A stretch of DNA of 64,000 nucleotides. It comes from Naegleria gruberi. Its lineage: Eukaryota. The position numbers and the translations under genes were made by a program. The stretch lies in the NCBI GenBank assembly GCA_000004985.1, contig GG738851.1. One strand, written 5' to 3'. Under the pieces are notes generated by a model. That model searched no databases. It had not been told where the DNA came from and saw nothing but the letters and a program-made list of their open reading frames with translations. This document shows, in pieces, positions 17,747-33,673 of the stretch. Every line of letters begins with the position of its first letter. The stretch's first letter is position 1.

Positions 17747-18826
17747 TTATTTTAATTCATCCCTAACAAACACCTTAATTTGATGATTTTCACAATCTGA
17801 AATAAATACAGAACCATTTCTCCTATCAGAGCAAAATCCAGTGATACAATCAAACGAGAAAGGATCATCCTTACCAAATTTTCCAAATGATTTCACCACA
17901 AGTCCACTATCAATATTTAAAACTGAAATTCTATGATTTCCTTCATCTCCAATCAATACATTTCTACTCTCCTTATCAAGTAAAAGATGAGAGTGATTAT
18001 TTACATCAGCATTCAGAGTTTTCAAGAGTGTAAAACTGTCACTTTCATCTTCCGAGACAAGTAGTAGAGATTTTTTGAAACCTATCAAGATTGTACCACG
18101 ATTCTCATCCATTGTAATTGCAAATGGTTCAAGCATTGAGTTAATTTCAATTTCTAGAGTGAGTGGATGGAAAACCTTGATGGAGGATATGGTTTTCACA
18201 AGAGTTCCATCAGAAGCTTTCATAATTACAATACGATCATTGAACCGATCGCACACGTATATAAAATTCCCTTCCTTTCCATATCGAATGGCCAATCCCT
18301 GTGGATCTTTAAACATTTTCTGTGAAAACCACAAAAGCTGAGCTAGGGGCAAATTGGAATTGACATGATTCAATTTCATTTTCATAATTGCATCCATACT
18401 CCCACTCACAAAGAGATTATCTGAATTCTCCTCTTCCTCCACCAATAAATAGAATGGATTCAAACCAGGTGTAACCAAAGCATTGATATATTCCAGTGTA
18501 TCCAAATTAAAAAACACAATTCTCCTATTCTCAGCATCGGTGACGATAATTAATTGAGTTCGATATGAAATTTTCACATCACAAGGAAAGGTGAAATTGC
18601 AATTGAGGCAAGTTTTGTATTTGATTGAATCATCAACAAGACATGGCTGAAATGTAGTGGTTTTACGTGGACACTTCAATTTTTCATGAATCATCATCAT
18701 GGCAGGATTAGAGGAAACATCTTCCGATGACTGATTAATAATAATGAAATCATGTAAAATTAATTTTACACAATTATTTGCAATTTTTCTAATTTTTGAT
18801 GGTTTTTCGTAAAGTGTTTCTTCCAT
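17747..18826 (-). CDS. NHL-repeat protein with N-terminal Cys-rich (B-box-like) region
   Basis: NHL-like blades (GLAIRYGKEGNFIYVCDRFNDRIVIM; VLIGDEGNHRISVLN; VFISDCENHQIKVF). N-terminal CPRKTTTFQPCLVDDSIKYKTCLNCNFTFPC. Confidence 0.6.
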   Translation of the reverse strand: MEETLYEKPSKIRKIANNCVKLILHDFIIINQSSEDVSSNPAMMMIHEKLKCPRKTTTFQPCLVDDSIKYKTCLNCNFTFPCDVKISYRTQLIIVTDAENRRIVFFNLDTLEYINALVTPGLNPFYLLVEEEENSDNLFVSGSMDAIMKMKLNHVNSNLPLAQLLWFSQKMFKDPQGLAIRYGKEGNFIYVCDRFNDRIVIMKASDGTLVKTISSIKVFHPLTLEIEINSMLEPFAITMDENRGTILIGFKKSLLLVSEDESDSFTLLKTLNADVNNHSHLLLDKESRNVLIGDEGNHRISVLNIDSGLVVKSFGKFGKDDPFSFDCITGFCSDRRNGSVFISDCENHQIKVFVRDELK

Positions 18827-19912: not shown

Positions 19913-20923
19913 TTAGAAAACAACTAGGTTGTTGTGGATTTGATAGGTTTCAGCGAGAATGTATGTGAATTTGGAAGTATCGGTCAAGTTGACAGCATGA
20001 ACATACATTGTACATGTTCTGGTGTGTGTTGATACACATTGGTATTGGATGTATCGAATGACCTCTTCTTTAGTGTTTTGACCAGTGTATTCCTTGAAAT
20101 AATCACTAAATGGATGGTGTTCCAGTAATTGAGCCAGTTCATCAGTTTTTGTAAGGAAAATTACAAAGCTGGAAAATAGTTCAGACTTTTTTAGGTTTTC
20201 AAATGTATCAATGGCCAACTGGAGACAATTTGTATTGTGTACCGTATCATGTAACACATAATCAGCCAATGAAATGAAATAATAGACCACGTCCACATTT
20301 TCAAATTGAGTAATCCATTTTCTTGGCTCTCCTCTCATATCACTGGGGTCAATAAATCTGAAATTAAAACCTCCCTTGATATCAATCTCTTTGATGGATG
20401 AGGAGGTTCTTGGAATTTTCACTCGATACATGTCGTTTAATTCAAATTTCATCTGAGAATTATTTTCCAATTTTGCAATAAACTCCTCACTGAAGAAATA
20501 CTTAATATTATTCAAATATCTCATATGAAAAGATGCTTCCAATAAAAATTCATTCTCTCCTTCTCTGACATATCTTATAAATTTAATCAGATCATTAGAA
20601 ATTGTCCTCAATCGAATATCTTTTCGTATAGTTTCTTTCAGCTTTTCGAATTGATTTGGTAACCGATTCTTTAACAATTCATAACAAACCAAAATACATC
20701 TAAACACAAATTCCATCACCCACCTATCCAATTTCACTCCTATCGACAGCAACCATTCAATATCATTATTGACACGCAGAAAATTGCAAAAAGTTGATTT
20801 TCCAGAATTTGTTCCTCCAAGAATGAGAAATCTCTTGCTGATTTGATTTTTGGAAAATTCATCGTGTATGATTAGCTGTTCCGAGATTTGTTTATCTTTT
20901 TGTCTTTCTTTTCGTCTGGCCAT
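19913..20923 (-). CDS. Divergent heterotrimeric G-protein alpha-subunit-like protein (catalytic motifs degenerate)
   Basis: P-loop LILGGTNSGKST (canonical LLLGAGESGKST). Switch II DVGGQR is replaced by DPSDMRGEPRKW, NKxD by TKTD, and TCATDT by TCTMYVHAVNLTD. Confidence 0.6.
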   Translation of the reverse strand: MARRKERQKDKQISEQLIIHDEFSKNQISKRFLILGGTNSGKSTFCNFLRVNNDIEWLLSIGVKLDRWVMEFVFRCILVCYELLKNRLPNQFEKLKETIRKDIRLRTISNDLIKFIRYVREGENEFLLEASFHMRYLNNIKYFFSEEFIAKLENNSQMKFELNDMYRVKIPRTSSSIKEIDIKGGFNFRFIDPSDMRGEPRKWITQFENVDVVYYFISLADYVLHDTVHNTNCLQLAIDTFENLKKSELFSSFVIFLTKTDELAQLLEHHPFSDYFKEYTGQNTKEEVIRYIQYQCVSTHTRTCTMYVHAVNLTDTSKFTYILAETYQIHNNLVVF

Positions 20924-21036: not shown

Positions 21037-24000
21037 TTACTCCATTTTAATTTCACAAACTACAATATCTTGTTTATGTGAAGATAATCTGATGGTAGAC
21101 ATTTGACGTTGCTCATTTGGTCTCATGTAGTTCAAGAAAAAGGTACACAGTACACTAGTGCCACCTGTCAAGTTTTGAGAATGATTTGAAAAGTAGTTTG
21201 TGGTTGCCTTGTAAATTCCTGCTGGTGCAACCTTAATCATGTATTCCTCAGGTCCGTAACCATTTCTGAAATCTCTACTGACTGTAATTGATTATTAGTA
21301 CAATGAATATTATAATACTTACCATAACCTCCGATAGCTGTTCTATTGTGGGCATAATATGCGTGCTCTCCTCCTTTATCAGCAGGTTCTTGAACATGCA
21401 AGTCCTTAATGATGTTTAAATTAATAAATTTTAGTATTGACCAATGCCAGTAAAAAAATACTTACAATATCTACTTGGTCAGTGTCCCATGCCATGCTTA
21501 TTCTAATATCTAAATCAAAGTGATGAATGAAACGTGGGTCAATAATTGGTAAATCAGGTTGTTTGAGTAAGAGATGGTTCATCTCAGTGGCAGCTGTCAT
21601 TTCAATTTCATCAAAACGCATGTCCCATTTTCCAGTAATGACCTTATTGAATAATTGCATAGACTCTTCATATTTTCCTAATCTTTCCTTCACCAGAGCC
21701 AAATCTCTATAAGATTGAGGTTCGTGAGGTGCAATCTTTTTCACTTTTTCGAATAGCCACTCAGATAATTCTAATGCATCGGCTTGATCCAATCTGTAGG
21801 CAACAATACGATACAATTGAATATTTTCCAATTCCAATTCACAAATATTTGATAGAATTCTCACACCCAATTTGAAATCCTTGACACTTGAAAGGAAATA
21901 ATCAGCAACATCGAGATAGAAAGCTGGGGAGTCTTTGTAACTCTTTCTTTGTTTCAAATATTCCTTATATGGGTTGGAGGATTTGGCAATTTCTTTACAA
22001 TAGCTGGCGTCAGGACTCCATGCCTTGATTGAGATTGATCCAGAGGCACTTTCAGATGTGCTCTTAGCCTCTGACTTCTTTTCCTTCTTGTCCTTCTTTC
22101 TGTCTTCTCCACCACCTCCACTTGAACTCTCAGATCTTCGCTTGCTGAGGCTGAGTCCTAATGAAATACCACCCTTCTTTTTGGATTTCTTACCACATGA
22201 TCGAAACTCAGCAGCTTCTTCTCTGAGACACAAGTCATCGGATTCTAAGCGTTCAAATTGAGGAGCACTACCAGCAAACTCTTCCTCACATTCATCTTTA
22301 CACAAGTCCTGTTTTTGTGATGCATTTCTTGGAGTAAAATCACGATTGTGCCAATTAACTCTTTCTTTCCACATGGAAAGAATTCTTTCAATTTTATCCT
22401 TTTCTCTTTTTTCCTCAGACTCTTTTTCATTCTTCTTCATTTCAGAATATTGCTTGTAAACATTTGCAAGAGTTTGCGGAGGTACAATGTCATGTTTCAA
22501 GTATTGATCCAAAGTTTCCAAAACGAGTAAGGTAGAATCTTCAGTGACAATTCTAAAATCTTGTCCAATCTTTTTAATTTCATCCTTGAAAAGATGAGGG
22601 AAAGCTGAGAGAGAATCAATCTTTTGTTGAGCCCATAGTAATGGCAAAACAGCAGCTTCACATTGTTCCAAATTGACTGGCAATTCCAATTCTTGAACGT
22701 GATAAATAGAGGAACCGAATCTGAAAGAAACTGCTATCTTTACACTTTCCTTTCCACTATTCTTGAATTTACCAAACAGTTTGAAAACTTCTCCTTCTTT
22801 GAGACTAACTGGTTCATTTGGATACACCTCTTCCAGATCAGAATCTTCAAAATCAGCAACAGCAAATGAGAGAACTGGTTTTCCAATTGACTTGACTAAG
22901 TCAACCTCAGTTAATTCATTGGAATTCAAATAAACACCTCCGCTCTTTGTAGCAATATGTTTAAGAAGAGGTGAATTGACAATATTTCCGCAAGTGACAA
23001 AATAAATTGGTTTCTCAAAGTTTGCCAATGGACTAATCTCATGTCCAAATGTATGAACACCATCAGTAAAGGCAATACAATAATCAACTGACTTGTTAAG
23101 CAAATCCTTATCAAATAGTAACATGTTGGAACCACCATCATAATATAGTTCATCTTTGACAAATTTCAAAACTTCTGCAACAGATGTAAAATCCACAGAT
23201 TGAATAACATCAGCACTGAAAGCAGATAATGAAATTGAAGTTGGAGCAATACCTTCAAGGATCACCTTCAAGGTCTTCAAGTTCTTTTCATGTAGTGACT
23301 GGTTACTATTGGAACAATCCCAAACAATTTGAATTTTGCTTCCAATTCTACTCATTTCTCTCAATTCTGTAGATAATTGAGGAACTGGAATAGATGTCAT
23401 GAAATAGCCATTTTCAGAAGCTAATAAAATATCCCTAACATCTTCTGATTGTTTTGTAACAGCCAATTTAAATCCGGTCATATTTTCATTGAGTTCTGAC
23501 TTTTTCAATTCGAAATATCCTGTTCTTGAGCTGGCATTCTTACTTGTCCACAACAGTTTATCTTCAACTGATTGGGTTTCAGCATTGGCAACACCCATCA
23601 ACACTTCAGTTTCAAATCCTTGTAATGAAGTTTGATTGAGTGTAAATTCAATCTTGGTATCATCTCTCAATGCACCAAAATTCAAGTATGACATTGGAAC
23701 CCAAGCACTTCCTCTAATCTTTCCCTTTTGTGAATCATTACTCTTTTCAATAATTTCATTCAACATCATTTGATATTTGACTTGAATAGTCTTATCCTTA
23801 TTATAAGGCAATGGATAAACACGAGTTTTGAATGAATTGGATTGAGAAACCTTCTCAACCATTGACACCTTATTTCCAGCTCTAACTTCAGCTTCAAAAA
23901 CTTCCTTTGCCTTTTCTTTTGGAACTGGGACAGCATCAATCAATTGACCATCAACTTCCATTGCATAACCTATCAAAGTAGCACCATCAGGCATTGGTAA

Positions 24001-24333
24001 CAACAATTCTCCTTCAATAGTTTTCTGATTTTGATTACAAAATGTCATGGTAGAAACCACCTGAACAATCGGATAGGTCACATGACATTGCACCCGATGT
24101 GAAACTAATGGCAATAACGTTGATGCTTTATCAGAATATTCTCCTGTTGCCAATTTCACGCTGGTAAATTGATCAAGATCCAGAAAGTGCAAACTCTTTG
24201 GAATGCTTCCAATCAGAGAGGCAGAATTTTTCGGATCCACGACAACTTTTTTATCATTGCTTGGAGTTGATTCGAGTTGTGAAAGTTCATCATCAACGGC
24301 TTTATTCTTGCTTCCGAAAAATTTGCCAAACAT
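21037..24333 (-). CDS. VIT + von Willebrand factor A domain protein, at least 3 exons (24333-21466, 21404-21323, 21281-21037)
   Basis: N-terminal VIT-like region, central vWA, C-terminal TPR-like helices. The main ORF ends …VDI at a GTAAGT donor. Two further small exons (introns 61 and 41 nt) continue in frame to the stop (…MIKVAPAGIYKA…EIKME). Confidence 0.65.
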
Positions 24334-24645: not shown

Positions 24646-25947
24646 ATGTCTCGCATGATTGAAGGATTAACTGGATTCAAGAATTTCATGGCTCCACAAT
24701 CGAATACTTGGATGGAGAATGCAGACGAAACTGACGAAGAAGAATTGAAAGAGTTTTGTGAATTTATGGAGGAGGAATGTAATGCAGAGTTTATTGAAGA
24801 GATTAATCAGGAATCGATCAATACAATGATCGATTATTCAGCATTTCCTTCAGTTTCGAATAGTGTCAGTAAAGGAAGTGCAACCTTATTGTCTTCATTT
24901 GAAAAACGAAAGGTCAAGAAGAAACGAAAGCAAAAAATTACTCCTTTGAAGAATTTGAAAAGTATTATTGTAGAGAATCCAAGATTGGTTTCTCCAACAA
25001 AGAGTACTCCTCCATCAAGTCCATTTCATCCTCAATCTTGTACTTTCGAATACATTCCACACGATGTCGTTGGAGAATACGAATCTATCTATATCACTCC
25101 AAGTAATTATCCATCCAATCTAACACATGTATCAAGCTGCCAGATTAAGCAAACAAGCAGATTTTTCCTATTTGGATCTTCTGTAACTAATCGAAACGTT
25201 TCTACTCATTTAATTTCATTTACTGTAGAGCCATCTTGTCATCCTAACACAAATTTGAAAAAGCAACACTTGGAAAAGTTTCCAAAGGATGTCCTTCCAT
25301 CATTTGGATCTGATTCTAGAATCATGATGGTTGTTAACACCTACTTGGAAAGTTATTACTTATTTATTTATTCGAAAGATACATTCTATAACGCACAAGT
25401 TGACTCGAATGGAAACTTGTTATCACCATTCAGAAAGTGTGAATTTACCAAGACTAATGAAGCTACTGAGTTCTTTACAATGATCTCCAAATATAAAGAT
25501 TCAGAAATTTGGAGATTCGGTGGAAGAAATAAGAAAACAAACGAATTGACTAATGAATTGGAAGTTTTTTCAACTATTGACAAGAAACACATCAAGATTG
25601 AAAAGATTATTCCAAAATCCTCCAAGATTCCAGCTCCAAGACAAGATCACTGCATGTACTATGATTCCAAAAAGGAAAGAATTTTCATTTTTGGTGGAGT
25701 TGACAAGAATGGCAACCTTTTAAATGATTTACAATGTTTCGATATGGAAAACAAGACATGGCGAGAGATTAAGACAAATTTCAAACTTCCTCCTCTCAAA
25801 AATTGCAAATTAACAATGAATGGATACAAACTTGATCGCATACTTCAACTAATTGGTGGAAATTTCAGTGATGGCTCTGTAAATTCTTTGATTATTTCAA
25901 TTTATCCTGAAACTGGTGATGTGAAAGTTCACAGTGCATTGGAATGA
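24646..25947 (+). CDS. Kelch-repeat protein (possibly fused to the downstream BTB ORF)
   Basis: Kelch-like blades in the C-terminal half (…RIFIFGGVDKNGNLLNDLQCFDMENKTWREI…). Confidence 0.55.
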   Translation: MSRMIEGLTGFKNFMAPQSNTWMENADETDEEELKEFCEFMEEECNAEFIEEINQESINTMIDYSAFPSVSNSVSKGSATLLSSFEKRKVKKKRKQKITPLKNLKSIIVENPRLVSPTKSTPPSSPFHPQSCTFEYIPHDVVGEYESIYITPSNYPSNLTHVSSCQIKQTSRFFLFGSSVTNRNVSTHLISFTVEPSCHPNTNLKKQHLEKFPKDVLPSFGSDSRIMMVVNTYLESYYLFIYSKDTFYNAQVDSNGNLLSPFRKCEFTKTNEATEFFTMISKYKDSEIWRFGGRNKKTNELTNELEVFSTIDKKHIKIEKIIPKSSKIPAPRQDHCMYYDSKKERIFIFGGVDKNGNLLNDLQCFDMENKTWREIKTNFKLPPLKNCKLTMNGYKLDRILQLIGGNFSDGSVNSLIISIYPETGDVKVHSALE

Positions 25948-25989: not shown

Positions 25990-27006
25990 ATGATTTCATT
26001 TGGAAATGATTCGGTTGTCAAGATTTTGGGAGAAGGAAAGAAAACGGAAGTTGACAGCTGGATCAGTCAAATCATGACAGAAAAATCTGGACATGATGTT
26101 ACTTTCCAGTTGAAATCAGGAAACCAAATTACAGCTCACAGATCGTTCCTTGCTTCAAGGTCAAAGTTTTTTGAGAAATTATTCGAAACTCATCAAAATA
26201 CTTATCCTTTAGAGGGATTACAAGATGACACGCTTCAATTCTATATTAATTTCCTTTACACTGGTTATCCACAGATTTCAATCTTACCAAAGCCAATAGA
26301 TTCCAAATTAATTCAAATTTTACAAGTTGACCAAAATAACTCATTAAGAAACTACATTACAGGAGAAGCTGTTTACATTACAGATATTTATCTCATAACA
26401 AGATCCATTGATGATGACATTCGAAAGCTCTATAACTTGGCAATTCAATCCAAGAATCAATCCAAGAAGGCAATCAATAATTCCTCCCTGATTTGCATTC
26501 AATTAATGGAAGAAAACACCAAAACAGATTGCTTCTTTGTAGATAAGACATTCATGAGAAGAATTGATTTCTTTAGAAACATTCTCGATTCAGGAATGAG
26601 TGAAGCCGAAACTGGAGTCATCACTCTTGAAATTTCATCAGAATGTTGTGAGAAACTAATCGAATTCATGTATATTGGTCAAATCAGTAACATTTCCGAC
26701 AGTGCCCTATTGGAATTGTTCATTATTTCCAAACAATATTTACATTGCCAAGAACTAGTTCACTATTGCGAAAATAATCTCAGTAGAATCATTCAAAATT
26801 TGACTCCACAAGTAGCAGTTCACATTATTGATTACTTTAGGGACACCTGTCATGCAGTAGATGACTTGATTTCAAGATGTAGATATTACATTTGCACTAA
26901 CTTTGACAATTCAAGAGAAGATATCTTAAATTTGGACTCCGATTCAAGATATGAATTGAGTAGGCTATATTTTGATTATCTCAAGAGAAAATTCAAAAGA
27001 AAATGA
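25990..27006 (+). CDS. Tandem BTB/POZ domain protein
   Basis: Two BTB-like segments (HDVTFQLKSGNQITAHRSFLASRSKFFEKLF…; …TLEISSECCEKLIEFMYIGQI). Confidence 0.55.
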   Translation: MISFGNDSVVKILGEGKKTEVDSWISQIMTEKSGHDVTFQLKSGNQITAHRSFLASRSKFFEKLFETHQNTYPLEGLQDDTLQFYINFLYTGYPQISILPKPIDSKLIQILQVDQNNSLRNYITGEAVYITDIYLITRSIDDDIRKLYNLAIQSKNQSKKAINNSSLICIQLMEENTKTDCFFVDKTFMRRIDFFRNILDSGMSEAETGVITLEISSECCEKLIEFMYIGQISNISDSALLELFIISKQYLHCQELVHYCENNLSRIIQNLTPQVAVHIIDYFRDTCHAVDDLISRCRYYICTNFDNSREDILNLDSDSRYELSRLYFDYLKRKFKRK

Positions 27007-27165: not shown

Positions 27166-30100
27166 TTACATCACAATGAAGGCACTCAAGAACACAACAA
27201 GCATCAATAATAGTTGTGATGAATGACTTTTCATACCAGTTGTGACATTCAATCTGACTGAACGAGCGGCTACTCCACTAACATGTCCATTAATATTCTT
27301 TGATGTTGAAGGAGTTGTAACAAATTCACAATTTGATCCAAATGCATTCTTCAAAGTACATTGACAAGTTTCAGGAGCAATACATTGACCTCTTGATGAA
27401 CAAACACTTGCATCAGTACTCTTAACTCCCTTACAATTGAATGATTCACAATTTGATCCATAGTATCCATTCTTGCAAGTACAATTATTTGGTTTGGAAC
27501 ATGTACCATTTCCAGAACAAACTGAATTATCTGAATATAATTGACCAAAACAATTGAACAATTGACAATTGTTTCCATAATATCCATTGTCACAGGAACA
27601 ATTATTTGGTTTGGAACAAGTACCGTGGGATGAACATACTGAGGATTGGTCACTTCCAATACCGTTACAATCAAACTTGCCACATGAAGCTCCATAATAT
27701 CCATTATCACATGAGCAATTATTTGGTTTTGGACAGGAACCATGTGAAGAACAAACAGATGAATTGGCACTGTTCACACCAAAACAATCAAACTTATCAC
27801 ATGCAGCTCCATAATATCCTTCCTTGCAAGTACAATTATTGAAATCCAAACATTGACCATTTCCTGAGCAGACACTTTGTGAATTCTTCAAAGTTCCAAA
27901 ACAATCGAATTCTTCACAATTAGCTCCATAATAACCAAGAGAGCATGTACAGTTATTATATGAAGAACAGATGCCATGACCAGAACAAACATTGGCTTGA
28001 GATTTGAGAATTGAATTACAAGTGAAATCTTCACACTTGCTTCCATTATAACCAGCAAAACATGAACATTGATCCAGTCCTAGGCAATAACCATGACCAG
28101 AACATCCCTTAGTTTCATCAGCAATACCAAAACATTCATTCACACAATAACTCTTGAAACTATTCAGTTTGCCTTTAACGCAATAAGGTGTTAACTTGTT
28201 AACAAATTTGGGTGTTGTGTAGAAAAATTCTCCTTTTCTATTTCTCATGACATAGGAGTAGTATAAATCTGGTACTGAATCCAATTTCAATTCTTCTAAT
28301 TTTCCTGTATACTTGTTTAGTTTGAGCAATGCTGAAAGGCCATAAAGAGTGATAATAATTTCACCCTCTGGTGTTTGAAGAATAGTTTGAACATCACGAA
28401 CTGATGTTTCATTGGCTGGTAAATTATATTCAGGATAACCTCTTGTGTAATTACCAACAATATTCGTAATAATTCCATTGGAAATTTTGAAAATTCTATT
28501 GTTGCCAATATCAGGAACCAACAAGACATCTTCTGACACAACACTGAAAGATTGGGCAGTGAATAGTGCTTGATTTGCAGGAATACCGCTTTCAATTCTA
28601 TTTCCAAGACCTGCAATGGTTGTAACAATTCCAGTTGACTTGGTGATTTTTCTAATTCTTGAAGAACCTTCCAAAATATAGAGATTTCCCTTCTCATCTG
28701 TGTCCATATAAACCACTTCTCCAAAATAGGCATTTTCAGCCTTTAAGCCATCTCCAAATCCACCTATTAATGTTGAAATGGTTGCATTCTCTTGATCAAC
28801 TGAAACATATTTGATATTGTTAATATTGGTTGGATCATCCACATTGGAGAAATACAAGTTTCTTCCCTTCATTAACATCAAGGTTGGGAAAATAGCAGCA
28901 TCAACAGCTCTCATTCCATCTCCAAAGAAACCATTAGTTCCATTACCAGCAAATAACACATTTTGACCTTGTGGAGTAATCTTTCTAACTTGGTAATTCC
29001 CAGTGGAAACATAAAAATCTCCAGTCAATGTATCAAATTCCAATCCCCCTACGTTATCAGTTGCTGATCCAGGAACAGAAGAAACTGTATTATTGTAAAG
29101 CTTTCTAATTCTTTGATTGTAGGGATCAGCAAAATAAATGGCATCCAATGAATTTTCTGAACGTACAACAAGAGCCAATGGATTGATATTTGCTTCAAGG
29201 GCAGGTATTTCCATATCAATGTTTTGCTCATAAATTTGTCCAGTACCAGCAATAATAGAAACTTGATTAGTGAGCTTGTCAATCTTCTTGATCAAATTCC
29301 AATCGGTCACATAGATGGCATCTCCAGAAGGTGATTCTGTCAAGAATATAGGTGAAACAACATCAATATTAGGTGGAACCTCGGATGATGGAATCCCATT
29401 TCCTGAAACTGTGGTGATTGTGCCATTAATTCCAAAAACCTTTCTAACTCTATTATTACCTAAATCGGCAATCCAAAGATCACCATTTGAATCAACAATA
29501 GCATGTGAAGGATTGTTCAATGTTGCTTCAGTTGCTAAACCACCATCTCCTGTAAATCCAACAGTGCCATTTCCTGCAATAATTACAACCATATTACTAT
29601 CTTTAGAAATCTTTCTAATAGTGTGATGTTTGTAATCAGCAATGTAAATTTCATCTTGATAGACAGATAAACCAACATATCTACCACCAAATATTGGATT
29701 CAGAGTATTGTTCAATAATGTATTAGTGCTTGTACTAATTTTTGCGTTTAACTTGGAAATTTCATTAAACTTTGCAATGGAACTTCTTCTAAATTCAGTG
29801 GATCCCTCAATTCCACCATAAAACACATCATTGCTCAATGACTTGTCAATTGCAATAGTTTTAATACGTTCGATAGCTCCAGGTAAGAAAACACTCTTCT
29901 CTAGACTATTGATCTTGTACATAAAGTTGGCATCAAGACTTCCAAAGTACATTTCATCGCTCTTTGAAAGAGTTGCAACTGTATCAACGACACTCAATTG
30001 TTTAGGATCCAGACCATCAATTGGAATTGGTACATTTTTTCCACTTCCAGCAATGGTTTGAATTGTGTTAGTTTGTGGACTGATTTTCTTAATGGAGTAA

Positions 30101-31062
30101 CTCAAACTGAATGTAATGGAATTGTCGCTGTAATCCATTACAATGGCAGTACCACCACTAACTTGAAAATCAGATACCAAAACTCCATCACTACCTGAAA
30201 TAGAACCAGACATGCCTGTAACCTCATTAGTTTCCAAATTATACTTGTAAAGAAAACTGTCAGATAACATGTAGAACTCATTATTGGAAACTTGCAAGAA
30301 ATCTTTAGCATAATAATAATCATTCTTTTTCATGTAAATGGTAGAATCAGAAATCAACCACAAACCAGACATTGTTCCAGTTCCATAAAGAACAATTCTT
30401 CCATCATTTGCCAAACTAAAAGCTGTCAACAGAAGTTGACATGAGAGAGCATTGCTACCATCATAACATGGATTTGTATAAAACAAACCACTGCTACTAC
30501 CAAACACTTGAGTTAAAGCAAGAGTTGTCATGTTAAATATGAATATTTTGTGTTGTTGTTGATAAGTTGTTGTTCTGATGGCAATATCTCCATTACCATT
30601 GATAGAACAACCACCTTCATTGCCATAGGATGAATCTGTTTTAGAAAAGAGTAGTGTTGTTGTGGCTGTTACATTGTCGAGTTTGTAGATGGCAATTTGT
30701 GGAAAAACAACACTGACAATGTACAGATTCTCAGAACTCTTATCATATAACAAACAGCTGACAGAGGTAGAGTGTGAATAAAACTTTTCAACTGTGCCAG
30801 TTTGTTTGGAAATTTTACGAATTGGTTGATAGTTATTGTATGTGAAAATATCACCAGCTGATGTAATGGTATAATGAGCATAACTAACAAGAGTGTTCAG
30901 AGCTGGGTAGCCAGAACCATCGTCATTACCACCTGCATAGACAGAAGTATTGTAAAAAGTTGGATAAACAACATTGTCTGGCAAGGTGGTTGCTTCTTGT
31001 TGCATGGATTGACCAGCAACAAGCAAGAACAAGAATAGACAAAACAATAACTTGTTTCTCAT
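27166..31062 (-). CDS. Large surface protein: signal peptide, NHL/beta-propeller repeats, about 8 tenascin-type EGF repeats, C-terminal transmembrane segment
   Basis: N-terminal MRNKLLFCLFLFLLVAGQS. Repeated CSGHGxC…NNCTCxxGYYGxxCExFxCxG units at the C-terminus. Terminal hydrophobic LLLMLVVFLSAFIVM. 1298 aa, single exon. Confidence 0.75.
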   Translation of the reverse strand: MRNKLLFCLFLFLLVAGQSMQQEATTLPDNVVYPTFYNTSVYAGGNDDGSGYPALNTLVSYAHYTITSAGDIFTYNNYQPIRKISKQTGTVEKFYSHSTSVSCLLYDKSSENLYIVSVVFPQIAIYKLDNVTATTTLLFSKTDSSYGNEGGCSINGNGDIAIRTTTYQQQHKIFIFNMTTLALTQVFGSSSGLFYTNPCYDGSNALSCQLLLTAFSLANDGRIVLYGTGTMSGLWLISDSTIYMKKNDYYYAKDFLQVSNNEFYMLSDSFLYKYNLETNEVTGMSGSISGSDGVLVSDFQVSGGTAIVMDYSDNSITFSLSYSIKKISPQTNTIQTIAGSGKNVPIPIDGLDPKQLSVVDTVATLSKSDEMYFGSLDANFMYKINSLEKSVFLPGAIERIKTIAIDKSLSNDVFYGGIEGSTEFRRSSIAKFNEISKLNAKISTSTNTLLNNTLNPIFGGRYVGLSVYQDEIYIADYKHHTIRKISKDSNMVVIIAGNGTVGFTGDGGLATEATLNNPSHAIVDSNGDLWIADLGNNRVRKVFGINGTITTVSGNGIPSSEVPPNIDVVSPIFLTESPSGDAIYVTDWNLIKKIDKLTNQVSIIAGTGQIYEQNIDMEIPALEANINPLALVVRSENSLDAIYFADPYNQRIRKLYNNTVSSVPGSATDNVGGLEFDTLTGDFYVSTGNYQVRKITPQGQNVLFAGNGTNGFFGDGMRAVDAAIFPTLMLMKGRNLYFSNVDDPTNINNIKYVSVDQENATISTLIGGFGDGLKAENAYFGEVVYMDTDEKGNLYILEGSSRIRKITKSTGIVTTIAGLGNRIESGIPANQALFTAQSFSVVSEDVLLVPDIGNNRIFKISNGIITNIVGNYTRGYPEYNLPANETSVRDVQTILQTPEGEIIITLYGLSALLKLNKYTGKLEELKLDSVPDLYYSYVMRNRKGEFFYTTPKFVNKLTPYCVKGKLNSFKSYCVNECFGIADETKGCSGHGYCLGLDQCSCFAGYNGSKCEDFTCNSILKSQANVCSGHGICSSYNNCTCSLGYYGANCEEFDCFGTLKNSQSVCSGNGQCLDFNNCTCKEGYYGAACDKFDCFGVNSANSSVCSSHGSCPKPNNCSCDNGYYGASCGKFDCNGIGSDQSSVCSSHGTCSKPNNCSCDNGYYGNNCQLFNCFGQLYSDNSVCSGNGTCSKPNNCTCKNGYYGSNCESFNCKGVKSTDASVCSSRGQCIAPETCQCTLKNAFGSNCEFVTTPSTSKNINGHVSGVAARSVRLNVTTGMKSHSSQLLLMLVVFLSAFIVM

Positions 31063-32279: not shown

Positions 32280-33673
32280 TTAATAATCAGAACCTCTACT
32301 CAATACTTCCTTGCAGGTTGGTCTCAAGAAGATGGTATGTTCAAATTGAGCAGTATGACATCCCTTAACATCTACAAATGGTGGATATTCATGAACAATT
32401 CCATTATTAACCAAATCACGAAGAGCAACAAGATATTTCTTTTGACCGGTTCTGTCCAAATATCTACGACAGAATGGAATGGATCCAAAATGATCATTGA
32501 TAACCTTGAGCAACTCTCTGGATTCCTTATTTCTCAACTCAGAGCCATCACCATGGTAGGTGAATTCTCTTCCATAATGAGAGGATACACCTTCTTCAAC
32601 AACATATCCCTTACCAGTAGTACCGAAAGTTTCAATTGCAAAGAATTCATTCTCTTCCATTTTGGTATTGTCTGGAGAAGCAACGATTGGAACTGATTTA
32701 GTTGAATGGACACGATATCTTTCGATTGAGTGTCCACACAAGTTTTCAATACTTTTAACTCTGTGAGTCTTTCCATTAATAGTCTATTAGTATTAGTTCA
32801 ACAAGCAATTAACATTGTAAATATAAATGAATAAGAAAAAATACATACAACTTCATAAGATTCCATTACTTCTTGAATGGCAGCTCCAACATCTCCCAAT
32901 CTAACATCAATGCCAGCTGTTCTGACACCCATGTTTGTTGCTTCCTTGACAGCATCCAATAATGGTTGATATTGATCATTCCAACACATGGTAAATGCAG
33001 AATCAATAATGGTTCCATTTACATGAGTTCCCAAATCAAACTTGATAACATCATCCTTTCCAATAACGGTTTCATCTCCACCATTTGGTGAATAATGAGC
33101 AGCAACATGATTGATGGAACAACCCAATGGAAAAGCAAGTCCACTCTTCTTCTTGTCAGCTTCCAACAATTCTCTAGCCTTTGCTTCATACATTTCAGCT
33201 GCATCAATAACCTTCATTCCAGGTTTAACAACTGAATCCTTGAACCATTTTCTGGCAGTTCTGTGAACCTCAGCTGCATGTCTTGCTTCCTTGAGACGTT
33301 CTTGCAACTTTTCATCTCTTTCTTCAGCACCAGGCTTCAACTCAGAAGGATGAAATCTCTTGGTCTTGTAATCGTATTGTCCCAATTCACAGATTTCTCC
33401 CTCTGGAAACTTTCCGTCCTTATACAAATACTTGATTGGTACAGTTGGTTCAGGTTGAGTTTGTTCAGTTGGCCATACTTTTTGTTTGTTTGGATGATTT
33501 TTAGTTGGTTGAACAGACTTTGAGCTTTCCTTTTCATTCTTCTTGCTCATTTCCATCAAAAACTTCATCTCATCATTGGAATTAATTTTTACATTCTTCT
33601 TCTTGGAAGTGGTTGATCCGCCTCCTCTGGTGGAGAGAGTTTGTGCAGATAGAGTACTCTTCTTGATGGACAT
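32280..33673 (-). CDS. METAP2: Methionine aminopeptidase 2 (MetAP2), 2 exons (33673-32849, 32783-32280)
   Basis: Lys-rich N-terminus and pita-bread fold motifs. GTATGT donor after …ESYEV and AATAG acceptor (65-nt intron) give …[26 protein letters not shown]…. Confidence 0.9.

Follow-up and report, generated by a model that had tools for sequence, protein, structure and literature searches.

A single-exon Naegleria gruberi gene encodes an NHL-EGF protein of a predicted surface protein family distinct from teneurins

Introduction

Teneurins are the best known proteins in which NHL propellers and EGF modules are paired. They have type II membrane topology and an intracellular domain, and also comprise a Cys-rich/TTR/FN-plug region, a single NHL propeller of six blades, a YD shell, an ABD and a Tox-GHH domain (PMC13018210, PMC6297184). 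Their EGF modules, eight in number, lie N-terminal to the NHL propeller, and modules 2 and 5 have five cysteines, for covalent dimers (PMC6297184). The YD shell, FN-plug, TTR, ABD and Tox-GHH constitute the 'superfold' that defines these proteins (PMC13018210).

In this study, we have analysed a 64,000-nucleotide stretch of Naegleria gruberi DNA (contig GG738851.1; the window), for which an original prediction had described a protein of teneurin-like architecture. The domain types are indeed held in common: like animal and choanoflagellate teneurins, the protein has an NHL-type propeller and a short tenascin-type EGF array as membrane-proximal stalk, in a large adhesion-type ectodomain, with sequence and fold similarity in both parts. 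The order of the domains, the membrane topology, the FN-plug, the YD shell and the toxin domain do not correspond.

A number of other systems can be compared with this protein. Bacterial NHL arrays, among them the teneurin-like protein 9ifo of Bacillus, share its blade consensus (AGxGxxGfsGDGGpAtxAxLnxPxGvAvDxxGNlYIADxxNxRIRKv) and are 26-34% identical to it over 450-520 residues; unlike it, they lack EGF arrays and eukaryotic anchors, and are joined instead to modules found in bacteria, such as Big, PKD, T9SS-sorting and YD. The LDL-receptor family (LRP4, LRP6, LRP2, LDLR) and nidogen resemble it at the level of the fold only, their blades being of the YWTD/Ldl_recept_b type rather than NHL, and their EGF modules, which are calcium-binding or of another type, being interleaved with the propellers; neither Ldl_recept_b nor Ldl_recept_a (LDL-A repeats) matched the N. 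gruberi protein in Pfam. Tenascins, and the Acrasis kona proteins P0224 and P0227 that are labelled 'tenascin', also have short six-cysteine EGF modules in long tandem arrays, whereas true tenascins are secreted hexabrachions with FN3 repeats and a fibrinogen globe, both domains being absent here by Pfam.

Results

The protein is encoded at positions 27166-31062, on the minus strand as are all its features given below, by one uninterrupted open reading frame of 1298 codons plus stop, starting with ATG. Given the base composition of the window, 7.2% of codons would be stops by chance, and the probability of 1298 codons without one is about 1e-42. The product shows 100% identity over 100% of its length to N. 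gruberi XP_002681250.1 (EFC48506.1, D2V4F6), and thus the public model of the gene, NAEGRDRAFT_63708, annotated as "uncharacterized", is the same complete single exon that had been predicted. A contaminant or bacterial origin of the locus is ruled out by the uniform GC content of the window and by its ordinary eukaryotic neighbours (G-alpha, VIT, Kelch, BTB and MetAP genes). A search for contigs encoding the protein returned none, NCBIfam profiles gave no match on it, and literature searches found no paper naming the gene by its identifiers and nothing specific on Naegleria together with teneurin, NHL or EGF, or on Naegleria GPI biosynthesis. The gene NAEGRDRAFT_63708 is real and intact, and its product, a large predicted glycoprotein of the cell surface, is in itself an ordinary modular surface protein.

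The N-terminus resembles a signal peptide, in agreement with the original prediction, and consists of MRNK followed by LLFCLFLFLLVA and GQS, with a hydropathy peak at residues 1-20. The signal peptide would comprise residues 1-19 (31006-31062), with small residues at -3 and -1, its cleavage site being placed by rule. Hydrophobic segments are found only here (residues ~4-20) and at the extreme C-terminus (1282-1298), and hydropathy indicates no N-terminal cytoplasmic domain. The chain contains 20 N-x-S/T sequons and 49 cysteines; of the latter, 44 belong to the EGF region, where they keep a perfect register.

The head, of about 940 residues, is made of NHL-type blades, one of them canonical and about ten detectable by profiles. 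The NHL repeats that had been predicted are borne out by Pfam, where PF01436 reaches 33.2 bits, the cutoff being 20 (the NHL and EGF matches lie above the curated cutoffs), and by blade HMMs of the family, which match nine units between residues 331 and 905 with E-values from 1e-6 to 1e-24. Pfam, the blade HMMs, structure models and fold searches together place about 11-12 blades at residues 331-960 (28183-30072), nine of them modelled confidently (464-925). The single canonical blade, at residues 485-541 (29440-29610; ISKDSNMVVIIAGNGTVGFTGDGGLATEATLNNPSHAIVDSNGDLWIADLGNNRVRK), reaches 79.9 bits with a blade HMM derived from repeats of bacterial proteins and supplies nearly all of the database score of the protein. 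As this one blade matches every bacterial repeat, the full-length homology search was swamped by bacterial NHL arrays, and the Naegleria family described below surfaced only with a query that omitted the canonical blade.

The modelled NHL region is composed of four-stranded antiparallel blades in a propeller arrangement, the NHL propeller fold. In the structure prediction that had been proposed as a check of this region, the two AF2 models disagree on ring closure, at pTM values of only 0.47 and 0.51. The number of propellers was approached with these two models and three fold searches, in which the best matches of model 1 were eight-bladed propellers and those of model 2 six-bladed NHL domains. 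The blade units number about 11-18, as compared with six in the teneurin NHL domain, a range to be read with the differing ring closure of the two models. Since the relatives have 6 or 12 blades, the head most likely corresponds to three six-bladed propellers, the N-terminal one being highly diverged.

This N-terminal region, residues 20-330 (30073-31005), is a beta-rich orphan. In an exhaustive HMMER search of 1.84e9 representatives with residues 22-460, nothing passed E<1e-10, and the three weak matches obtained all fell on residues ~280-385; without relatives, no alignment could be built for the region. The AF2 model has low pLDDT here, with patches of four-stranded sheets, hhalign relates the region to the NHL array with 50% probability (E 1.6e-4), and the blade HMM gives one weak match at residues 47-83 (E 0.012). 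Altogether, residues 20-330 are probably degenerate propeller blades. Over the whole head, every blade but the canonical one is degenerate, and its role in binding may be altered or relaxed.

At residue ~960 the NHL blades pass directly into the stalk (residues 961-1249; 27316-28182), in which a cysteine pair (Cys961/Cys973) precedes seven tandem EGF modules (977-1014, 1015-1053, 1054-1092, 1093-1131, 1132-1170, 1171-1209 and 1210-1249). Each module has exactly six cysteines in the register C-x9/10-C-x5-C-x5-C-x-C-x8-C, giving 42 cysteines with a 39-aa period and module lengths of 38-40 aa. Pfam assigns seven stretches to EGF_2 (E 2.5e-30) and six to EGF_Teneurin, and EGF_TEN scores 79.3 bits (cutoff 65). 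The modules are of the tenascin/teneurin type (C..C..C..CxC..C, six cysteines in about 30-40 aa, in tandem), as originally described, the count being seven rather than about eight. Module 4 and most of module 5 (residues 1082-1163) coincide with a 117-bp tandem DNA repeat of 2.1 copies with 80% match (27574-27819), and these two modules, 69% identical, are the most similar of all pairs; the repeat is a recent EGF module duplication.

The protein ends 50 residues past the last EGF module. A Ser/Thr/Asn-rich linker (1250-1281; 27220-27315), with an SVRLN motif common to the relative P0219 and with candidate omega sites at N1272, G1276 and S1279, leads to the C-terminal hydrophobic peptide (1282-1298; SQLLLMLVVFLSAFIVM; 27169-27219), which reaches the last residue and leaves no cytoplasmic residues. 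The hydrophobic stretch that had been taken for a membrane anchor is present, and it resembles a GPI-attachment signal, judged by hydropathy and by the tails of paralogs, rather than a transmembrane segment. The overall layout is also of the GPI type, with an N-terminal signal peptide, a polar spacer and a terminal hydrophobic peptide. Similar GPI-like tails occur in the paralogs P0124, P0218 and P0242 and in P0219, and the succession of EGF array, S/T-rich linker of 20-35 aa and terminal hydrophobic peptide is repeated in at least 13 relatives. From these features, it is most likely that the C-terminal peptide is cut off and a GPI anchor attached in its place.

The omega site itself is not clear-cut, as only a short spacer follows S1279-H-S, the best triplet of small residues. 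A clean omega/omega+2 small-residue motif at the canonical distance is missing. Together with the length of the hydrophobic run, 15-17 residues and thus near that of a membrane helix, and with the true TM helices of several relatives, this would suit a type I membrane protein with a permanent TM or tail anchor and otherwise the same function. We regard such an anchor as unlikely, given that nothing follows the hydrophobic run, not even a basic stop-transfer sequence, that the TM-bearing relatives P0172, P0221, P0228 and P0269 all have K/R-rich tails past the helix, and that the terminal layout recurs so widely among relatives.

On sequence grounds, the protein belongs to an unstudied and unnamed Naegleria family of modular NHL+EGF surface proteins, with members in N. 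gruberi, N. fowleri and N. lovaniensis as well as in environmental samples. Large molecules with tenascin-type EGF arrays had been linked in the original prediction to amoebozoan multicellularity genes. This taxonomic premise is corrected here: N. gruberi is a unicellular amoeboflagellate of the Heterolobosea (Discoba), and the named relatives with this architecture are all from Naegleria. Members include P0218 (854 aa), XP_002674612.1 (P0172, 589 aa) and P0242 (832 aa) of N. gruberi, FDP41_011322 of N. fowleri, C9374_003885 and C9374_008946 of N. lovaniensis, and the environmental P0219, P0226 and P0228. In BLASTP, similarity is colinear across the NHL/EGF junction with P0218 (residues 601-1245, 35%, E 2e-89), P0219 (residues 299-1249, 31%, E 3e-89), and also with P0220 of N. 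lovaniensis and P0221 of N. fowleri, the identity within the family being 27-35% in alignments across this junction.

The family shares the succession of signal peptide, NHL propeller(s), 39-aa EGF array and membrane anchor. Within it, the present protein is the longest, with about 18 blade units where its relatives have 6 or 12, only one blade above 40 bits as opposed to 40-80 bits for all of theirs, and an N-terminus of ~300 residues that has no detectable relative. The C-termini vary: a GPI-like tail is found in P0124, P0218, P0219 and P0242, a TM helix with a short basic tail in P0172, P0221, P0228 and P0269, and a TM helix with a Pkinase domain in P0226 and P0236. The occurrence of these three endings among relatives identifies the NHL-EGF unit as an extracellular module.

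Discussion

We consider it fairly probable that the 1298-aa protein is a GPI-anchored surface glycoprotein with a propeller head and an EGF stalk, acting as an adhesin or a ligand-capturing co-receptor. The N-terminal signal peptide would direct the protein into the ER, from which a heavily disulfide-bonded glycoprotein would emerge, its propeller head carried by seven EGF modules that form a rigid stalk, followed by a short Ser/Thr-rich linker, with the C-terminal hydrophobic peptide swapped for a GPI anchor. The propeller faces are candidate binding surfaces, which the stalk would keep off the membrane, and the substrate, prey bacteria or other cells are candidate ligands. As it has no cytoplasmic part, the protein cannot signal alone; family members combining the same ectodomain with a TM helix, or with a TM helix and a protein kinase, would be the signalling versions.

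A GPI-delivered protein could also be a structural component of the extracellular matrix or cyst wall instead of a ligand-binding adhesin or receptor. The cysteine-rich, heavily glycosylatable and highly repetitive chain, its degenerate blades and the lack of a cytoplasmic part are compatible with such a role, GPI-delivered wall proteins are known in fungi, and a Naegleria pangenome paper mentions GPI-anchored proteins in the context of wall proteins (PMC9928731). However, in close relatives this ectodomain is joined to protein kinases and to TM tails, pointing to sensing or adhesion, and nothing connects NAEGRDRAFT_63708 with encystment, so that a structural role appears improbable.

Even less credit can be given to the idea that the propeller is a surface-displayed enzyme, a six-bladed hydrolase or lyase of the SMP-30/gluconolactonase, strictosidine-synthase, PAL or Vgb-lyase type. 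Many bacterial relatives are named 'sugar lactone lactonase YvrE' or 'SMP-30/gluconolactonase', but on the bacterial arrays these are automatic labels; the Pfam models SGL, Vgb_lyase and Str_synth do not match the 1298-aa protein, its blades are degenerate, and a catalytic-metal motif was not identified.

The preferred reading, an adhesin or co-receptor, is also to be set against a teneurin homologue in the strict sense, a premetazoan or early-eukaryote relative of common origin with the animal adhesion receptors. In its favour are the Pfam matches to EGF_TEN, EGF_Teneurin and, at cutoff, TEN_NHL, as well as the best PDB sequence matches, which are to the bacterial teneurin-like 9ifo (E 7e-44) and to teneurin-2/3/4. 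The teneurin-named models, however, score higher on proteins that are not teneurins: EGF_TEN reaches 103.6 bits on the NHL-less paralog P0124, and TEN_NHL reaches 205 bits on P0219 and 275 bits on P0027, relatives without a YD shell, far above the 1298-aa protein; TEN_NHL also has a precomputed match on each bacterial NHL array among the matches listed. The 9ifo score arises because a single blade of the query aligns with six blades of the target, and NHLRC2 and SOQ1 are closer in fold than teneurins. No YD/RHS shell (RHS_repeat, TEN_YD-shell), FN-plug, TTR, ABD or Tox-GHH was found by Pfam at E<=1, while the YD-shell model PF25023 was found on the bacterial P0010 and P0045, and is thus detectable when present. 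The order, signal peptide-NHL-EGF-anchor, is the reverse of that of teneurins (ICD-TM-EGF-...-NHL-YD-toxin), and the topology, type I or GPI-linked as against type II, is likewise opposite. None of the seven EGF modules has an odd number of cysteines, and the C1-C2 loop of each is ~6 residues longer than in teneurins. Membership of the teneurins is refuted by the missing YD shell, FN-plug and Tox-GHH and by the reversed order and topology, and common origin with them is the least probable of the readings weighed here.

The NHL + EGF pairing, best known from teneurins, thus arose separately in a distant unicellular eukaryote, and for this reason EGF_TEN and TEN_NHL matches in Pfam should not be taken as evidence of teneurin ancestry. 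A bolder and rather doubtful extension is that heteroloboseans independently built a teneurin-analogous family of extracellular recognition modules, in which one or more NHL propellers of bacterial type stand on an EGF stalk. Several outputs would have been wired to it: GPI anchor, TM tail, receptor kinase and, where NHL occurs by itself, GPS with RGS. Horizontal transfer from bacteria taken as prey may have been the source of the NHL part. If so, the three-propeller GPI-anchored protein would be a rapidly evolving adhesin, directed at prey or substrate or serving self-recognition, and the pathogen N. fowleri would have homologues of it. The adhesion molecules of this brain-eating species are poorly known, and it has one member of this unstudied NHL-EGF ectodomain family, which includes receptor kinases. 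Rejected as a paralog of NAEGRDRAFT_63708, to which it shows no significant BLASTP similarity, the second NHL gene that had been predicted in the window (17747-18826) is real in its own right, with a PF01436 match of 43.6 bits.

Gene, locus and neighbours

The reading frame at 27166-31062 on the minus strand runs for 1298 codons from ATG to stop without interruption, although the base composition of the window would place a stop at 7.2% of random codons (chance of 1298 open codons, about 1e-42). Its product is identical over the whole length to the N. gruberi protein deposited as EFC48506.1, XP_002681250.1, UniProt D2V4F6 and NAEGRDRAFT_63708, and therefore the public gene model is exactly this single exon, as the original prediction had it. 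The record, on a contig of 693,645 bp, describes a "predicted/uncharacterized protein", and our literature search found no paper naming NAEGRDRAFT_63708. The amoebozoan context first proposed was mistaken, N. gruberi being a heterolobosean (Discoba).

GC content around the gene is even (0.32-0.37) and the neighbours are ordinary eukaryotic genes: G-alpha (19913-20923), VIT (21421-24333), Kelch (24646-25947), BTB (25990-27006) and, on the minus strand, an M24 methionine aminopeptidase (32798-33673). This last frame aligns to positions 3-145 only of the 208 in the Peptidase_M24 profile, and the adjoining frame at 32280-32741 (minus strand) resembles the absent C-terminal part, with no Pfam match for that piece at E≤0.001; 32280-33673 is probably one methionine-aminopeptidase gene with an intron of about 56 bp between the two frames. 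The further NHL gene announced at 17747-18826 (minus strand, 359 aa) does carry one strong NHL repeat (PF01436, 43.6 bits), along with a weak lactonase-propeller match. BLASTP finds no significant similarity between its product and the 1298-aa protein, and thus the two NHL genes of the window are unrelated.

A family of Naegleria surface proteins

Searching with the full-length protein returned mostly bacterial multi-NHL proteins, nearly all of the score coming from a single canonical blade pairing with every repeat, and none of the best 120 matches spanned aa 1-440 or the EGF array. The matches listed measured about 0.55-1.75 times the query (751-2258 aa for the 1298-aa query, 187-592 for 338 aa, 396-1184 for 679 aa); because listed lengths were tied to query length, the Naegleria family stayed hidden until the query was re-cut. 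It was found with the EGF array plus tail and with aa 620-1298; in the latter search, all NHL and EGF proteins bearing an organism name were from Naegleria.

Several members end in a GPI-like tail: P0218 of N. gruberi (854 aa, 35% identity over aa 601-1245), the environmental P0219 (1155 aa, 31% identity over aa 299-1249, E 3e-89), which shares with the window protein an SVRLN motif directly before the tail, and P0242 of N. gruberi (832 aa, 12 blades, 2 EGF modules). A transmembrane (TM) helix with a basic cytoplasmic tail is found in FDP41_011322 of N. fowleri (1108 aa) and in P0172 of N. gruberi (589 aa, 6 blades, 4 EGF modules). In N. lovaniensis, C9374_003885 (1102 aa) has a hydrophobic segment at its end, with the type of anchor less clear, and C9374_008946 is a further member. 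In two environmental JGI proteins, P0226 and P0236, a signal peptide and an NHL propeller are followed by 5-7 EGF modules, then by a TM helix and Pkinase; they are predicted receptor kinases with the ectodomain plan of the window protein.

The head can also be exchanged. P0124 of N. gruberi bears a different, lectin-like head on the cassette of EGF modules and GPI tail (43% identity over 95% of the cassette), and the same EGF array carries RCC1 propellers in P0165 (N. gruberi XP_002682627.1), P0133, P0139 and P0175 and a Kelch propeller in P0203. A propeller or lectin head, an EGF stalk and an anchor thus look like a general design of Naegleria surface proteins. The window protein is an unusually long and diverged member of this unstudied family.

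The propeller head

The NHL-type repeats of the original prediction are present at aa ~331-960, as seen by Pfam, blade HMMs, BLASTP and MAFFT. Pfam gives NHL at 33.2 bits (cutoff 20) and TEN_NHL, a teneurin-named model, at 27.1 bits, exactly its cutoff. Scored against an HMM of bacterial blades, aa 485-541 is the sole canonical blade (79.9 bits); an HMM trained on the family has significant matches at 331-374, 464-484, 490-541, 546-589, 599-654, 704-738, 759-805, 809-857 and 861-905 (E 1e-6 to 1e-24). In BLASTP, aa ~445-920 are colinear with bacterial NHL arrays (26-34% identity, 450-520 columns), and in MAFFT ten query units register with ten bacterial repeats.

A first AF2 model (aa 22-975, 30-sequence alignment; mean pLDDT 63, pTM 0.47) is confident for aa ~462-926 only, where it shows eight four-stranded blades, with 563-614, a plausible blade by sequence, looped out. 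A second (aa 441-975, better-registered 17-sequence alignment; mean pLDDT 74, pTM 0.51) predicts nine confident blades. Foldseek matches of the first model comprise 9ifo (a Bacillus teneurin-like protein), LRP4/6/2, a Bacteroides double-propeller sensor, SOQ1, NHLRC2 and teneurins. At the level of predicted structure, the propeller fold and the NHL type of the head are confirmed, the number of rings not. Blade-HMM counts are six in the relatives P0172, P0218, P0220, P0221, P0228, P0235 and P0248, twelve in P0242, and eleven matches plus one gap in P0219. Since these are multiples of six, and motif inspection of the window protein counts about 8 units between aa 55 and 440 and 10 between aa 459 and 960, three six-bladed propellers would be the most economical reading.

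The predicted signal peptide stood up, aa 1-19 being of classical shape (MRNK, LLFCLFLFLLVA, GQS). For aa 20-~330 no relative was detected anywhere: in an exhaustive HMMER search of aa 22-460 against 1.84 billion cluster representatives, only the protein itself scored below 1e-10, and three weak matches all fell on aa ~280-385. AF2 confidence is low here, with patches of four-stranded sheets; profile comparison with an NHL array gives only 50% probability (E 1.6e-4), and the family blade HMM one weak unit (47-83, E 0.012). We read this region as a putative, strongly diverged propeller.

EGF stalk and C-terminal tail

The cysteine-rich EGF array was rightly recognized, with seven modules rather than about eight: aa 961-1249 hold a Cys pair (961/973) and seven modules of 38-40 residues, each with exactly six cysteines (C-x9/10-C-x5-C-x5-C-x-C-x8-C), and Pfam EGF_2 matches seven stretches (E 2.5e-30). 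Modules 4 and 5 share 69% amino-acid identity and coincide with a tandem DNA repeat at 27574-27819 (117 bp, 2.1 copies, 80% match), which argues for a recent module duplication; the array appears to grow by such recent unit duplication. Separately, aa 961-1298 match chains FA, AA and DA of PDB 9ufe ('tubular mastigoneme protein' and OCM6; E 7e-6 to 1e-3), so this short EGF module type also builds flagellar hairs in other protists.

After the array come a linker rich in Ser/Thr/Asn (aa 1250-1281) and a hydrophobic peptide (SQLLLMLVVFLSAFIVM, aa 1282-1298) reaching the last residue. The hydrophobic end is thus as first described, though more GPI-like than TM-like: a polar, S/T-rich spacer is followed by 15-17 hydrophobic residues, with 0 cytoplasmic residues and no basic stop-transfer. 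At least 13 relatives likewise end in a hydrophobic peptide with nothing beyond, whereas those bearing a TM helix have a K/R-rich tail in every case. Judged on this layout and its recurrence in paralogs, a GPI-attachment signal fits better than a TM helix, and evidence of GPI-anchored proteins has been reported from the genus (PMC9928731). A permanent TM anchor, of the kind that some relatives do possess, or a tail anchor is unlikely.

Proposed role and comparison with teneurins

That the NHL-EGF unit lies outside the cell follows from the signal peptide, the disulfide-rich EGF array, the many N-x-S/T sequons (20 in the whole protein) and the TM and kinase variants in the family. The protein is best explained as a GPI-anchored surface glycoprotein, a putative adhesin or ligand-capturing co-receptor, whose propeller head or heads, held out from the cell on the EGF stalk, would bind ligand. 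A structural role in cyst wall or matrix is improbable, and an enzyme on the surface highly so.

Like teneurins, the protein combines an NHL propeller with an EGF stalk in a large surface ectodomain, and in domain types the original prediction holds; in architecture it does not. By definition, teneurins are type II TM proteins in which a small intracellular domain is accompanied by eight EGF modules, a Cys-rich region, TTR, FN-plug, six-bladed NHL, YD shell, ABD and Tox-GHH, with FN-plug, NHL and YD shell forming the defining superfold (PMC13018210); covalent dimers are possible through EGF modules 2 and 5, each of which holds five cysteines (PMC6297184). The window protein has the opposite topology, NHL before EGF, and six cysteines in all seven modules, and Pfam at E≤1 finds no FN-plug, TTR, YD, ABD or toxin domain; membership is thereby ruled out, and true teneurin homology is the least credible reading of all. 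EGF_TEN, also teneurin-named, scores 103.6 bits on P0124, which lacks NHL, and 119 bits on P0129, and TEN_NHL scores 205 bits on P0219, 275 bits on the paralog P0027 and is precomputed on all bacterial arrays found; the teneurin-named models matching the window protein are generic. The YWTD-propeller/EGF units of the LDL-receptor family are functionally as good an analogue; Ldl_recept_b and LDL-A repeats are absent from the window protein, which is therefore not a member of that family.

Other modular proteins of this kind were encountered. P0027 (N. gruberi XP_002677176.1, NAEGRDRAFT_67572; 2103 aa, many strong NHL blades) carries a GPS motif (GPCR proteolysis site, ~1542-1581) and, at its C-terminus, an RGS domain; it is a predicted receptor of adhesion-GPCR-like type in which RGS is fused to an NHL ectodomain. 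The very fragmented assembly GCA_037189345.1 encodes the NHL and EGF proteins P0161 (also with a REJ domain) and P0185 on contigs L001 (1-5788) and L002 (1-4262); consecutive same-strand frames of L001 (695, 188, 574 and 362 aa) appear to be parts of a single giant NHL-EGF-REJ gene. In the heterolobosean Acrasis kona, the EGF-array proteins P0224 (Pfam EGF families and PF01419) and P0227 (EGF families, PF13385 and PF08305) are called 'tenascin' or 'tenascin-X' in NCBI/UniProt, names that look like annotation carried over from the EGF module type only.
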